UHGV virus genome: UHGV-0100673
Origin: a virus
Length of the DNA stretch: 29,596 nt
Direction: 5' to 3' (one strand)
This document shows, in pieces, positions 8,604 to 24,362 of this stretch. Position 1 is the stretch's first letter, and each line of letters starts with the position of its first letter. The notes under the pieces were generated by a model. The model saw only the letters and a list, made by a program, of their open reading frames with translations. It was not told where the DNA came from and did not search any database. A program made the position numbers and the translations under genes.

Positions 8604-11078
8604 TTATTGCGGAGTGACATCCTGAGGTCGCCACCAGTATGTCTGGTTAAACTCTTTCTTCGAACGTTGCTCCATTTTACGCAAATAGCCTGGTGAAAAA
8701 TACTCCTGCATCTGGTTAAAGATCATGTGATCGAGAGCCGCCTTCAAGTACCAGAGATTCGCACCAGGCATCAAACCTTTCCCCAGCTTCACCAGATCAC
8801 CACCAGTCTGCTCACTCTTCCCTTCCACAGCATTTAACGGTATGCCCTGAGCAATCTTCACTACGTCATCAACCAGACCAGCTACCGGGCCAAGCATCGA
8901 CGCCAGCGCGCCGCTTCCGTACCTAGTGTGATCTGACAATAAAAAGTCACCATAAAGGCCAAGACCACCACCTTTCAGTAGAGCACCAAGCCAGAATTTT
9001 GCGGCATCTTCTCCTGTCATCTCTCGAGGATTACGACCAGACGCAAGGTCGTTAAGTTGTTGCGACAAAGCGCCAAGAATGGTCGTACTGGCAATAAACG
9101 TCGCAATATATGCCGCACGCCCACCAGCAGACGGCATACCCATAGCGCGTGACCAGTGACGCATAACAACCGAGATAGGGAACGATTTAAACAGGAAAAC
9201 ACTTCTCGTTAATTCACCTTTCCATGTTCCACGCTGAATACCAGAACCGGTTATCAGTTGCTCACGTGCTCCCGGTGTAATAACAGCCATATCAACTTCT
9301 TCAGTTACGGCACCGAGCAGTTTACGCATTGCCTCAAATTTCACGCGTTCAGGCTCACCAAGATGTTTAACTGCTGAATCAGGGATACGCATAATGCTTT
9401 CCGGTGTCAGCATCGTATTATTACCGTTACCCCAGTCCTCCTGTTGCGCCAGCTTCCATACGCTCCAGTCTGTGTCAGTAATCCCTTTGCTTTTCAGGAT
9501 ACGAAAATCAGAGTCATCGAGGCTACGAAGGTCTGGTGTTCGTGACACTACTTCTCCCAGGCTTCCCATCATGGTTACGCCATAGGCGCGCTTGTGCGCA
9601 TCTGACCATGCTGTAAGCCCACTGGCACGCATTACCGCCGTTGCCGCCCAACGAGACACTGACGGCCCCATATTATCCATCGCCCAGCGGTTAACGCTGC
9701 CAAGTAGAGATTCCATCGCCAGACCAGCGCGGCGCGCCCGCGCAAGTTCTGTACGGTTCGTTGGGTCCATAGCTTCAAGCTGGTTGCGGAATAACTGGTT
9801 CATTGGAAGGTTGGTAACCTTCGCAGACAGATACATGGTTCCAAGATCAGAGAACGATGACAGCAACGCGGATCCGAGTCTGCTGGCAACCAGCCAGTTG
9901 CGGATATTGTCAGACCATCGCGCGATGTGCGGATTCGCTACAGGCTGTGTCTTTCCGGAAATAAAGTTGTACAGATTCTCTGTGTTGTTCGCCAGCCGCT
10001 CGACTTTACCGGTTTTACTCGGGTTAGCGGTTGCCGTTTCTGCCTTCACCTGATCAAGAAGAGAGCGGAAAACATGATCGGGGTTTGGGCCATATGTTTC
10101 CACCAGTGCAATATCTTTACTGATACCTTCCAGGTGACCGACCATGATTTCCCATAGAGAGCGATCGCCATAAAGTTGCTGATATTGCAGATAGGAATCT
10201 GCATCTTTGAAATGTATCTGTCGTGATGCATTACCACGGTTAGCACGTGCGCCGGAAATTCGCATTCCGGTATCAGTAAGCTTATTCAGCCCACCAGTAG
10301 CGATCGTGTTATAAGCCTCTCCAAGAAATGCAGACAACTCGGCATCGTTCATCAGTTGTCCATCGGCTCGGATATAATATTTGCGATCCAGCTTACCTAT
10401 AACATCGCTAACCCACTTATCCTTTGATACCGCCCCAACCTTTTCCATAGAATGATGTTGAGGGATCCCCCAGTTTTCGAGATAGCCAATGTCCCCACCA
10501 GCATCATTAAACCGGCGGCGCAGCAGCTCTGTAACTTCTCTCCACGCCTTAGCACCTTTTCTTGCTTTAGCATTGCCAGTATTTTGCCCCCGCATTTCAT
10601 ATACCAGGTCACGTACGCCCGCTTCATCTTCAAACAGACCAAAAAAGCGAGGATCAACTGCTTCGAATGCCTCCTGCAATTGACTCAATGCATAATCACG
10701 GGTGGCTTTTGTTCTGGATTCAACAGAGAGGAAATTAGATTTACCGTCTGCATTAAAAGCTATAGTACGGTTAAGAGCGCCAAGTTTCCCATCAGCCCCT
10801 TGATAGCTATTGATAAATTTATCCAATCTCTGACGCGCGGCTATAGTGAGAGCCACACGACGTTTCTTTAATGCCGCTTCTCGCTGTAATTCTTCAGATG
10901 CCAATTGTGCTGCTCGATATAGCCGCTCTGATTCGGAAAGTTGTCGCCACGACATCGGGTCATCACGAGCAATGGAGCGCATATTTCGATAAATGCGGTC
11001 TTCAATGTTCTGTATTTCTCGCGCCGTTAACGTGCGCTGCGCCGCCTGCTGGACCGCTTGTATACATTCCTGTCTCAT
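8604..11078 (-). CDS. Internal virion / ejection protein (gp16-like position)
   Basis: 824-aa ORF in the run of large proteins between the tail tube genes and the end of the structural operon; call is positional. Confidence 0.55.
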   Translation of the reverse strand: MRQECIQAVQQAAQRTLTAREIQNIEDRIYRNMRSIARDDPMSWRQLSESERLYRAAQLASEELQREAALKKRRVALTIAARQRLDKFINSYQGADGKLGALNRTIAFNADGKSNFLSVESRTKATRDYALSQLQEAFEAVDPRFFGLFEDEAGVRDLVYEMRGQNTGNAKARKGAKAWREVTELLRRRFNDAGGDIGYLENWGIPQHHSMEKVGAVSKDKWVSDVIGKLDRKYYIRADGQLMNDAELSAFLGEAYNTIATGGLNKLTDTGMRISGARANRGNASRQIHFKDADSYLQYQQLYGDRSLWEIMVGHLEGISKDIALVETYGPNPDHVFRSLLDQVKAETATANPSKTGKVERLANNTENLYNFISGKTQPVANPHIARWSDNIRNWLVASRLGSALLSSFSDLGTMYLSAKVTNLPMNQLFRNQLEAMDPTNRTELARARRAGLAMESLLGSVNRWAMDNMGPSVSRWAATAVMRASGLTAWSDAHKRAYGVTMMGSLGEVVSRTPDLRSLDDSDFRILKSKGITDTDWSVWKLAQQEDWGNGNNTMLTPESIMRIPDSAVKHLGEPERVKFEAMRKLLGAVTEEVDMAVITPGAREQLITGSGIQRGTWKGELTRSVFLFKSFPISVVMRHWSRAMGMPSAGGRAAYIATFIASTTILGALSQQLNDLASGRNPREMTGEDAAKFWLGALLKGGGLGLYGDFLLSDHTRYGSGALASMLGPVAGLVDDVVKIAQGIPLNAVEGKSEQTGGDLVKLGKGLMPGANLWYLKAALDHMIFNQMQEYFSPGYLRKMEQRSKKEFNQTYWWRPQDVTPQ

Positions 11079-11083
11079 TTAAT

Positions 11084-22393: not shown

Positions 22394-22686
22394 TCCTGTT
22401 CACTGGCCTCTTTGGCCATCTTCAAATACTGTTCAGGGCAATGCGCCATAACGCGCTGAAACAGTTCCAGCGCCAGATTGCGTTGCCCCTCATTAAATGC
22501 CATTGCCATAGCGTCCATCGGTGAGATAGCGGAAAACACACGGCCTTTCTCCAGCACCGACCAGACAACGCGACGCCCATGTTCACTGCTCATGACAAAG
22601 CGAATGTCATCAATTTCACGCTGTGCCATGTCACGTTGCTTACGGGCGCTTTCTTCTTTCAGTTGATCATCTTCGTAATCTGTCAT
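22390..22686 (-). CDS. Hypothetical acidic protein
   Basis: 98-aa ORF translationally coupled between portal and scaffold genes. Confidence 0.45.
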   Translation of the reverse strand: MTDYEDDQLKEESARKQRDMAQREIDDIRFVMSSEHGRRVVWSVLEKGRVFSAISPMDAMAMAFNEGQRNLALELFQRVMAHCPEQYLKMAKEASEQE

Positions 22687-24362
22687 TGTGATTTCCCACC
22701 CTGACCACTAACTGCATTCGCCATAGCTGACAAAACACTCGGATCAGAAGTTTTAGCTTCGCTTAGCGTCTTGGCACCCTGTGCCGCCGCCATCCCCATC
22801 GCCATCATTTGTTGCTGCTGTTGCTGCTGTGCCCGTTGCTGGCGAGTCTGCTCAACCTGTTCCTGCGGAACAATGACGGTTGGAGACACTCCGGACATAT
22901 CAGCGAATGCATCGATCGCCTGATCAACGTTGAGTTTGTCGAGAGCTTCTGGTTTCGCTTGCGCAAGTTGACCAATGAAGTTGACCGTGGATGCCAGACT
23001 GGACAGGCCGATAGACTTCTGCGCCTGAGCCATGACGGAAATGTATTCGACCTTCAGGGGCATACCTTCCATCGCGTCAGGCGGTGGCGGCAGCATGTTT
23101 TTACGCACCATCATCGAGAAAGCGCGGTCAATGAGAGGATTAAGACATTCGTCGTTCAGACGCTCCAGAACCGGCCCCAACATCAGAAGTTTTTCTTCTT
23201 TCATTTCGATCACCGCTTCAACAGGCATCGAGCGGGTATTGATGTTCTGCAACATCATGAACAGATCGACAAAGTAGGCGCTGTTAATGATTTGCCGAGT
23301 GTCCTGAATGTCTGCTACCAGATCTGCTGTACTGGGGTTAACCAGATAAGCAGGCCTGAAACCATCCTGACCAGTAATCTGATCGATATACGTGATGTCG
23401 CCAGGAAGAAGGGAGGCACGCTGATTCTTGAGGGAAGTCGGAGCAACCATCGGCGGATTGGTGGCTTTATCAATCAACTGCGACTTGCGCTTCTGAAGAA
23501 GCTGCAATGCCTTAACAGGTCCAAGCGCCAGCATACCCGGGCATGATGATCCATAAACATCTTCGCCGTTAACTTCCCAGCGCGGAGCCATAATTGGAAA
23601 CTCATCGAATCCGGACTCACGCAACAACTTGTCGTTATCGCCACCAACCTCGTAATAAACCGATTTGAATGGCTTGTTCTTGCTATCCAGCTTCGATGTA
23701 TCGCGGTCAATGTTCGGGTAAACCGAATGCATCACTTCAATCCACTTCTCGTAGGTGCCGCTTTCCCACATGCTTTTTACGGATTCGCTGACGTTATTTA
23801 GCCCGAACTCCTGAACAAGCTGACGAACAGTCATAGCGAACTTGCGAAAACAGGTGTCCACACTGCCACGAGGTGAGTTAGCCAGGTAGTAACTGCCTAT
23901 CGGGAATGGCATTGTGCGAATGATGTCCTCGTCATCTTCCAGCACTGCCATTGCACCAGTGCTGTATGTGCCGAGGCTTCCGTATAACTGCGGCAGCGAC
24001 TGATAGAGATTCGACTTATTGAACATATCGTTCATGCGGTTCTGCACCGCCTCAAGCCACAACTTAACAGGGCCATAATCCATCATTTCAGGATCTGGCG
24101 TAGCCAGGCGAAACCACGGACGCGCGGGGCTTGTGATGCCTGACATCATGCCGCTGGCGAGAGTGCGCGCCGCCATAGTCCCGGTCGAATCAATAATGCG
24201 TGTATTGCGTCGATCGTTACGGTTGACCTCAGAAGTCAGAAAGCGGGAACCACGCGGGTTGATGTAATCACTCAACTCGCGCCAGTGCGGCTCGAACGAC
24301 TGACGCTCGCTTTCAAGTTGTGCGAACTGTTTGTTCAATCGCTCTTTAGTTGTTTCCGCCAT
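22683..24362 (-). CDS. Portal protein
   Basis: 559 aa, directly in the position expected for the portal with SD GGAG upstream; poly-Gln tract near the C-terminus; size close to T7-type portals. Confidence 0.75.
   Translation of the reverse strand: MAETTKERLNKQFAQLESERQSFEPHWRELSDYINPRGSRFLTSEVNRNDRRNTRIIDSTGTMAARTLASGMMSGITSPARPWFRLATPDPEMMDYGPVKLWLEAVQNRMNDMFNKSNLYQSLPQLYGSLGTYSTGAMAVLEDDEDIIRTMPFPIGSYYLANSPRGSVDTCFRKFAMTVRQLVQEFGLNNVSESVKSMWESGTYEKWIEVMHSVYPNIDRDTSKLDSKNKPFKSVYYEVGGDNDKLLRESGFDEFPIMAPRWEVNGEDVYGSSCPGMLALGPVKALQLLQKRKSQLIDKATNPPMVAPTSLKNQRASLLPGDITYIDQITGQDGFRPAYLVNPSTADLVADIQDTRQIINSAYFVDLFMMLQNINTRSMPVEAVIEMKEEKLLMLGPVLERLNDECLNPLIDRAFSMMVRKNMLPPPPDAMEGMPLKVEYISVMAQAQKSIGLSSLASTVNFIGQLAQAKPEALDKLNVDQAIDAFADMSGVSPTVIVPQEQVEQTRQQRAQQQQQQQMMAMGMAAAQGAKTLSEAKTSDPSVLSAMANAVSGQGGKSQ

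Follow-up and report, generated by a model that had tools for sequence, protein, structure and literature searches.

The UHGV virus genome UHGV-0100673 (29,596 nucleotides, nt; this whole analysed stretch is called the window) carries a block of virion genes on its minus strand at positions 8604-24362, and raises the question of how the functions of the phage T7 ejection protein gp16 are encoded there. A first-pass annotation, made from the letters alone, had read this block as a T7-like gene order inside a temperate prophage and had proposed that two adjacent products of 600 and 824 amino acids (aa) together represent a split gp16. Our analysis indicates that the block is very probably the operon for virion assembly and DNA ejection of a phiV10-like (Uetakevirus) temperate podovirus residing beside yfgI in Escherichia coli, in which the gp16 functions are located on separate genes and the layout of the three large internal protein genes, referred to as X (837 aa), Y (600 aa), and D (824 aa), is ancestral.

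The block matched Escherichia phage phiV10 (NC_007804; genus Uetakevirus, epsilon15 group) with 98.5% nt identity over 100% of its 15.8 kb. Its open reading frames (ORFs) corresponded one-to-one to the RefSeq annotation of phiV10 (p07-p20), with the same gene order and sizes. Epsilon15 itself was ~75% identical at the nt level over 36% of the block, in the nozzle-to-capsid part, and 11 phage records covered at least 80% of the block. The comparison to epsilon15-like genomes that had been proposed as a check on the first-pass annotation thus revealed a nearly identical relative across the whole block, and the suggested epsilon15/phiV10-type affiliation was borne out. At the left end of the window, positions 70-1143 on the plus strand encode the host proteins YfgH and YfgI, whose genes were found in 5422 of the 5426 complete E. 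coli genomes, and the phage lysis cassette follows directly. Because chromosomal yfgH/yfgI and then the lysis cassette lie within the window, the element is an integrated prophage, as had been assumed; the integrase is located outside the window, and the prophage state was read from the host genes abutting the lysis cassette. The junction between prophage and chromosome falls between position 1143, where yfgI stops, and ~1236, from where the sequence is phiV10-like; the gene for an Rz-like spanin ends at 1363. The identity and colinearity with phiV10, the integrated state, and the presence of an epsilon15-type capsid protein (GP7) and Gp10 decoration protein are all in line with the genus Uetakevirus. 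Members of the Autographiviridae are lytic phages that encode a single-subunit RNA polymerase of their own. We do not claim membership in this family, as the element is a prophage with its closest relative in Uetakevirus; its early region lies outside the window.

To search for remote homologs of the T7 ejection proteins, non-redundant family alignments were compared with T7-family alignments by profile-profile comparison in local mode (hhalign). Among the large proteins, a sole signal was obtained, between D (8604-11078, minus strand) and gp16, while neither X nor Y rose above noise level in any comparison with gp15 or gp16. The D family aligned with the gp16 family (P = 2.9e-4) over 369 colinear columns, with D columns 269-662 (~residues 238-650) opposite gp16 720-1135. 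The P value was 4.9e-5 if only the C-terminal sub-alignments were used, and all 15 reversed-profile controls yielded P ≥ 0.09. Read from the alignment, D and gp16 have the motif MQFKSF(P/T)I in common, which in T7 gp16 is followed by a hydrophobic segment (1136-1154). By eye, a hydrophobic stretch of D that is below the hydropathy threshold may be placed opposite this segment. This weak signal suggests that D is the counterpart of roughly the C-terminal 60% of gp16, also referred to as internal virion protein (IVP) D, and the sole detectable gp16 homolog in the block, in agreement with Hardies et al. 2016, who named epsilon15 gp17 as the IVP-D homolog (PMC4819975). D was ~28% identical to its homolog in the epsilon15-like phage VB_ST_E15 and closer to gp17 of Burkholderia phage BcepC6B (31%).

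A recognizable N-terminal module of gp16 was found elsewhere. X (12883-15396, minus strand; phrog_992) occupies the position of T7 gp15, and in related loci its family holds the place after the gp14-like gene and before Y. Residues ~250-380 of X (14260-14649, minus strand) form a muralytic domain of the Enc34/PHA02564 lysozyme-fold type, which matched the N-terminal domain (residues 3-146) of the 1295-aa protein Gp29 (PDB 9VVP_L; E = 5.5e-38) and the Enc34 endolysin's catalytic domain (7Q47; E = 2.8e-17). The Enc34 endolysin domain belongs to the PHA02564 lysozyme-fold family, and its muralytic activity has been demonstrated (PMC8943055). A tblastn search located the domain, at 49-55% identity, in T7-family phages, within gene 16 products annotated as 'internal virion protein with endolysin domain'. 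In gp16 of the Citrobacter phage CR44b (Kayfunavirus), residues 4-130 were 53% identical to X residues 250-379, and the rest of the protein was 53% identical to T7 gp16 residues 152-1315. Since the N-terminus of CR44b gp16 corresponds to the domain of X, a recognizable gp16 N-terminal module resides on X, two genes upstream of the gp16 body. As judged from sequence similarity, the detectable pieces of gp16 are hence the enzyme on the 837-aa X and the body on the 824-aa D, not the 600- and 824-aa products. The database label 'head protein' for X is wrong in emphasis; by its sequence, X is a predicted internal virion protein that contains a muralytic domain. Profile searches, which had also been proposed as a check, assigned no product of the block to a sheath or baseplate; the only tape-measure match, phrog_2276, spanned residues 218-446 of the 837-aa ORF in an 862-aa reading, the region that holds the muralytic domain.

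Three homolog searches, one of them with a diverse profile, retrieved solely near-identical copies from enterobacteria. To place these domain locations in context, ~140 diverse related loci were collected from viral contigs (ranked around BcepC6B and VP5), and the ORFs upstream of each homolog of the 824-aa protein were classified. The following counts rest on 93 unique loci that hold X, Y, and D. The conserved order was adaptor, nozzle, gp13-like protein, gp14-like protein, X (660-870 aa), Y (~380-1785 aa), and D (780-1040 aa), and X, Y, and D were separate genes in all 93 loci. The arrangement as three genes is ancestral in the entire epsilon15 homology group, and therefore no 'split' has taken place in this prophage. 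The muralytic module was found as an SLT domain in Y in 33 loci, as an Enc34-type domain in X in 21 and in Y in one, and on none of the 93 D homologs. Lysozyme domains have also been described on the gp15-position proteins of phages K1E and K1-5, and ejection proteins are known to have swapped domains (PMC8954989). The cell-wall-cutting module moves between the first and the second large internal protein, and in T7-family phages it is located on gp16 itself. As shuffling of domains among ejection proteins is a documented theme, our results refine the known biology and do not change it. In one locus (L005; Salmonella phage VB_ST_E15, OR757455), the X and Y homologs appeared as broken ORFs of 511 + 491 and 222 + 523 aa, respectively, which probably reflect sequencing frameshifts rather than biology.

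These data bear directly on the proposal that the 600- and 824-aa proteins are the two halves of a split gp16 and that the 837-aa protein is the gp15 equivalent. The summed size of Y and D (1424 aa) is near that of T7 gp16 (1318 aa), D aligns only with ~residues 690-1318 of gp16, so that ~480 N-terminal gp16 residues have no counterpart in D, and an SLT domain as found at the N-terminus of T7 gp16 resides in a third of the loci (33/93) on the gene just upstream of the D homolog. Conserved cysteines at the end of Y and the start of D, which occur together in 92 of the 93 loci, hint at a physical link between both proteins. However, neither the core nor the C-terminus of Y resembled gp16 150-700 or any other part of gp16 (P = 0.2-0.5), the gp16-type muralytic module is here in X and not in Y, and no Y-D fusion was observed in the 93 unique loci or in 150 Y-family representatives; long members of this family carry ADP-ribosyltransferase (ART), ParB, or toxin cargo instead. 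The reading frame relation of Y and D also varies, with a 5-nt gap in this prophage, abutting genes in BcepC6B, and a 1-nt gap in VP5. As this relation differs among relatives, we rejected a fusion of Y and D by read-through or frameshifting. Taken together, a gp16 divided into Y and D is highly improbable, and the claim of the first-pass annotation is not supported in the form given there, considering a Y that lacks similarity to gp16 and gp15, a muralytic module in X, and genes that are separate throughout. Similarly improbable would be a remote fusion or fission at the origin of T7 gp16 that involved an SLT-bearing gene like Y and a gene like D.

If Y is not a part of gp16, its nature needs another explanation. 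Y (11084-12886, minus strand) was predicted to be an internal protein without an enzymatic domain in this copy; its AlphaFold2 (AF2) model was all alpha-helical, with a mean predicted local distance difference test (pLDDT) score of 75. In Foldseek searches of BFVD, it matched the N-termini of polyvalent, ParB, ART, and 'internal virion' proteins (E = 2e-14 to 7e-5). An exhaustive search retrieved 1345 Y homologs of 400-1740 aa, in which the shared part was always N-terminal and comprised ~380 aa. Cargo domains among the long or syntenic family members included SLT (20/56), Zeta toxin (4), and ParB-like (3) domains, and further members carried ADP-ribosyltransferase, LPD3, nuclease, and RelA/SpoT domains. 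The Y protein of the block contained neither SLT, toxin, ParB, or ART domains nor any other of these cargo domains, and it showed no similarity to any part of gp15 or gp16 by profile comparison or fold. These features indicate that Y is, by its sequence relationships, a member of a separate modular family. The giant 'polyvalent' members (L259 with 1785 aa; L251, L183, L229, and L264; P0315 and P0373) carry Zeta toxin, ParB-like, ADP-ribosyltransferase, PBECR1 nuclease, or RelA/SpoT domains. Their position between X and D in podovirus ejection operons suggests an injection of effectors together with the DNA.

A different assignment was put forward by Hardies et al., according to which D alone represents gp16 (IVP-D), while X and Y together represent gp15 (IVP-C) and have diverged past recognition. 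This proposal was argued from synteny, size, and helical content (PMC4819975). It is consistent with the location of X and Y after the gp14-like gene and before D, seen throughout the surveyed loci, and with the all-helical model of Y. In contrast, we found no evidence from sequence or fold that ties X or Y to gp15. Neither profile comparison nor BLASTP detected any similarity of the 837-aa X to T7 gp15, the X and Y families compared with the gp15 family gave P ≥ 0.086 throughout and a best BLASTP E-value of 0.022, and BLASTP searches of the 837-, 600-, and 824-aa proteins against T7 gp15 and gp16 returned nothing significant. Likewise, Hardies et al. 2016 found no gp15 homolog and proposed epsilon15 gp15 and gp16 as IVP-C candidates only (PMC4819975). 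The length range of Y (~380-1785 aa) and its toxin, ParB, and ART cargo are also more readily reconciled with an accessory carrier of cargo than with a subunit of a core tunnel. We thus regard a joint gp15 equivalent made of X and Y as a tentative possibility, clearly less probable than the assignment of gp16 functions to X and D with Y as a member of its own family.

The conserved cysteines mentioned above are found at the very ends of the two proteins. Y ends with a near-invariant cysteine (C596, motif A..CF[IL]; 11084-11110 of the window), and D starts with an invariant one (C5, motif M..KC; 11064-11078). They could form a disulfide or metal bridge joining Y and D. One may further speculate that Y is a dedicated carrier, whose N-terminal ~380 aa package and eject a cargo and which is maybe linked to D through these cysteines, so that Y and D would act as one gp16-equivalent unit without ever having been one gene. 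We consider this full scenario unlikely, albeit slightly less so than a divided gp16.

Several observations weigh against our assignment of gp16 functions to separate genes and should be kept in mind. The matches of D to gp16 (P = 5e-5 to 3e-4) and of the nozzle protein to T7 gp12 are weak, with hhalign probabilities within 40-68%, and both were obtained in runs without secondary-structure terms. The AF2 model of D, built from a shallow alignment, had a pLDDT of 52 and was too poor for a fold test, and sequence profiles of D and Y did not match any solved structure, with only chance matches of either profile in the PDB. With the three query domains used, the muralytic module was undetected in 38 of the 93 loci, which leaves the survey of its location incomplete. 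Finally, a role of X as the 'tunnel' protein would follow from position and size only, without similarity to gp15.

In the block as a whole, 14 genes were identified at 8604-24362, all intact and on the minus strand. The ORFs listed earlier were all present (559, 233/231, 330/328, 202/201, 823, 154, 181, 837, 600, and 824 aa, where the second number of a pair refers to the start codon preferred here), but four small head genes had been missed: those of the Bbp19-like (98 aa), Bbp16-like (145 aa), and epsilon15 Gp10-like (107 aa) proteins and that of a 111-aa protein (19856-20191). The proposed T7-like order holds in part. From the portal through adaptor and nozzle to the two small and the large internal proteins, the succession is parallel to that of T7 gp8 and gp11-gp16, with homology at several positions, whereas the head genes are not T7-like. 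Neither the T7-like order nor the epsilon15/phiV10 assignment is new to the literature, and Hardies et al. 2016 gave essentially the same mapping (PMC4819975).

The statement that nearly every gene junction overlaps was exaggerated. Counted with ATG starts that agree with the phiV10 RefSeq annotation, 7 of the 13 junctions overlap and 6 are gapped. The overlaps consist of ATGA at the portal/98-aa and 837/600-aa junctions and of 1-nt overlaps (TGATG or TAATG) at five junctions in succession, which begin with the Gp10-like gene and reach the 837-aa gene. Hence, six of the seven are located between the Gp10-like and the 600-aa genes. At the remaining six junctions, the genes are separated by gaps of 2, 14, 51, 10, 51, and 5 nt. 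It follows from this distribution of gapped and overlapping junctions that coupling is confined to the tail and internal protein genes; tight translational coupling is real for these genes and not for the head genes.

The two small internal virion proteins preceding X have counterparts in T7. The 154-aa protein (15941-16405, minus strand) is gp13-like (IVP-A); its family matched the T7 gp13 family with 97% hhalign probability (E = 3.6e-11, 135 columns), and it was assigned to phrog_308 'internal virion protein', while the E-value against Pfam PF11090 was 0.18. The 181-aa protein (15396-15941, minus strand) is gp14-like (IVP-B), with 31.2 bits against Pfam PF24072 T7_gp14 (cut-off 27) and 87% hhalign probability (E = 3.8e-6) for its family against the T7 gp14 family. 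Consistent with these assignments, gp13 and gp14 of epsilon15 have been mapped to IVP-A and IVP-B (PMC4819975).

The tail hub genes lie directly upstream of this pair. The 201-aa protein (18876-19481, minus strand) is the adaptor at the position of T7 gp11 (tubular tail A). It matched the 'Connector Protein' of PDB 8CK1 (chain E; E = 5e-26), orf17 of 9EFK, the adaptor of phage LME-1 (E = 4e-5), and phrog_394 'tail protein', and the comparison of its family with T7 gp11 gave an hhalign P of only 0.045. The 823-aa protein (16405-18876, minus strand) is the tail nozzle corresponding to T7 gp12 (tubular tail B), with matches to the 'Tail Nozzle' of 8CK1 (chain A; E = 1.6e-216) and to orf18 of 9EFK (E = 2e-15). 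Its family aligned with T7 gp12 over 388 colinear columns (P = 2.1e-4; reversed control, P = 0.52). The homology of epsilon15 gp11 and gp12 to T7 tubular tail proteins A and B has been asserted with support from comparisons of hidden Markov models (HMM-HMM) (PMC4819975). By these similarities, adaptor and nozzle are predicted to form a T7-like tail hub, as homologs of gp11 and gp12. None of the solved internal or ejection proteins of Carin-1 and LME-1, the phages from which 8CK1 and 9EFK derive, matched X, Y, or D.

The head genes are of a different type. Of T7 kind is the 559-aa portal (22683-24362, minus strand; phiV10 p07), which matched Pfam PF12236 Head-tail_con, the T7 gp8 family, over its full length (E = 3.3e-187). 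The major capsid protein (328 aa, 20691-21677, minus strand; 330 aa from an ATG at 21683) had a sole Pfam match, to the epsilon15 GP7 family (PF20911, E = 2e-149), and is thus not a T7 gp10-type capsid protein. Three extra genes stand between capsid and adaptor and a fourth between portal and the 231-aa gene, all on the minus strand. The latter encodes the 98-aa Bbp19-like small head-module protein (22390-22686; Pfam PF25181, E = 2.9e-17; phrog_528), which has no T7 counterpart. The former are the genes of the 145-aa Bbp16-like protein (20202-20639; Pfam PF21190, E = 1.7e-46), which we presume, from the work on BPP-1, to be a capsid cement protein, of the 111-aa equivalent of epsilon15 gp9 (phrog_590, E = 1e-60; phiV10 p12), and of the 107-aa epsilon15 Gp10-like capsid decoration protein (19481-19804; Pfam PF21628, E = 1.2e-51). 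A mechanically called ORF of 129 aa (19795-20184) was discarded as a shadow frame, as it has no family and the real gene at this place is that of the 111-aa protein. A 1-nt indel relative to phiV10 is present in the intergenic spacer adjoining the 111-aa gene. Judged by these family matches, the head genes are of the epsilon15/BPP-1 type and not of the T7 type. The capsid and terminase of epsilon15 have been reported to group with those of siphoviruses (Hardies et al. 2016, PMC4819975).

Less clear is the function of the 231-aa protein (21692-22387, minus strand; 233 aa from a GTG at 22393) at the position of the T7 scaffold gene gp9. The first-pass annotation had called it a scaffold, whereas phrog_458 (E = 1e-109) and RefSeq name it 'protease'. 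Neither label was corroborated by a scaffold or protease family match in Pfam, NCBIfam, or PDB. The protein showed only weak matches to the helical families Mitofilin, COG6_N, and YlbF, which suggests a coiled-coil-like character. Its position and the absence of any peptidase family match in these three databases, next to the coiled-coil-like matches, would favor a scaffolding protein. However, the Pfam capsid model begins at residue 21 of the capsid ORF, which is compatible with N-terminal trimming and, like the database names, would fit a prohead protease. Hence, a scaffolding function is nearly as probable as its opposite, and the label 'protease' should be used with caution for a protein without family support.

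Outside the block, the terminase genes are located upstream of the portal on the minus strand, with the large subunit at 26249-27718 (Pfam Terminase_2, E = 7e-28; phrog_2) and the small subunit at 27715-28425; they correspond to phiV10 p01/p02. The spacer between portal and terminase contains, on the plus strand, a tRNA-Arg gene (anticodon TCT; 25011-25087) and a 296-aa ORF (25335-26225; phrog_13369) with a guanine-cytosine (GC) content of 0.41, for which weak SMC-like matches suggest a coiled coil. In phiV10, this spacer holds other small genes, and the tRNA-Arg and the 296-aa ORF look like a moron insertion. On the other side of the block, an overlapping pair of plus-strand genes encoding 108 aa (7012-7338) and 170 aa (7325-7837) lies between a Bro-N antirepressor gene and the virion genes. 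The 170-aa protein is named a YafO-family toxin in the RefSeq entry of a related prophage, and its match to Pfam YafO was below the cut-off (E = 9.5e-4). This pair is a possible toxin-antitoxin moron; a PADLOC scan of the accessory ORFs, including this pair, found nothing. The tail fibre or spike (629 aa; 3529-5418, minus strand) takes the functional place of T7 gp17. Its residues 1-236 matched phrog_1640 and many tail-fibre PHROGs, and a sub-threshold Pfam match to the N-domain of the T7 tail fibre was also obtained (E = 3.6e-4). The phiV10 tail fibre has 875 aa, and only the N-terminal ~236 residues, the virion-attachment part, are widely conserved. The different receptor-binding part implies an O-antigen specificity different from that of phiV10.

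Beyond the observed phiV10 identity, family assignments, domain locations, and conservation of the X-Y-D layout, a working scheme can be proposed in which virion location, ejection, stoichiometry, and membrane targets would follow the analogy with T7 and the literature. The terminase and the T7 gp8-type portal would build and fill an epsilon15/BPP-1-type head, consisting of an HK97-like capsid of the GP7 family with the Bbp16-like and Gp10-like proteins as accessories, and the adaptor and nozzle would form a T7-like tail hub. The five internal proteins would arise from tightly coupled translation. Presumably, the 181-, 837-, 600-, and 824-aa proteins are packaged in the head and then ejected to form a trans-envelope channel. 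In this channel, the gp14-like protein may provide the outer-membrane part, X a periplasmic component that also bears the peptidoglycan-cutting domain, and D the equivalent of that body of T7 gp16 which forms the channel at the inner membrane. The N-terminal ~380 residues of Y are probably a handle for packaging and ejection, to which the variable remainder would add the cargo carried in other phages. For annotation purposes, the label of a phiV10-type prophage virion module can be given to the block with confidence, roles can be named for most of its genes, and the epsilon15 group provides a clear example of T7 gp16 functions spread over separate genes.

Among known systems, phiV10 is nearly identical within the block, while the flanks are mosaic and only 47-72% covered, with differences in the tail fibre, in the lysis-side region, and in the spacer between portal and terminase. 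Epsilon15 (gp4-gp17) has the same gene order, the phiV10 annotation cross-references its gp5-gp16 gene by gene, and the GP7 and Gp10 Pfam families of the capsid and decoration proteins are named after it. The likeness to T7 comprises the order of portal, adaptor, nozzle, and small followed by large internal proteins, with measurable homology for portal and nozzle, for gp13 and gp14, and for gp16 in its C-terminal body. In contrast to T7, the block has head genes of another lineage with four extra small ones, three instead of two large internal proteins, no detectable gp15 homolog, and a temperate lifestyle. Its muralytic domain is of the Enc34 and not the SLT type and internal to the first large protein, and its tail fibre gene is ~3 kb away, with opposite-strand genes in between. 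The solved nozzle and adaptor structures of the Cobetia marina phage Carin-1 (PDB 8CK1), termed a T7-like virus in the LME-1 paper, and of Legionella phage LME-1 (9EFK), whose tail was described in the same paper as closely resembling that of T7, are those of sequence homologs of the 823- and 201-aa proteins. The Enc34-type domain also occurs in 9VVP Gp29 and in the gene 16 product of CR44b, where it is fused to a T7-type gp16 body, whereas here it lies in the middle of X. Finally, BcepC6B (gp11-gp17; BPP-1-like group) shows the same layout of adaptor, nozzle, two small internal proteins, X, Y, and D (207, 768, 141, 226, 706, 763, and 864 aa), with the difference that its muralytic domain, of the SLT type, is inserted in Y (gp16) and not in X.

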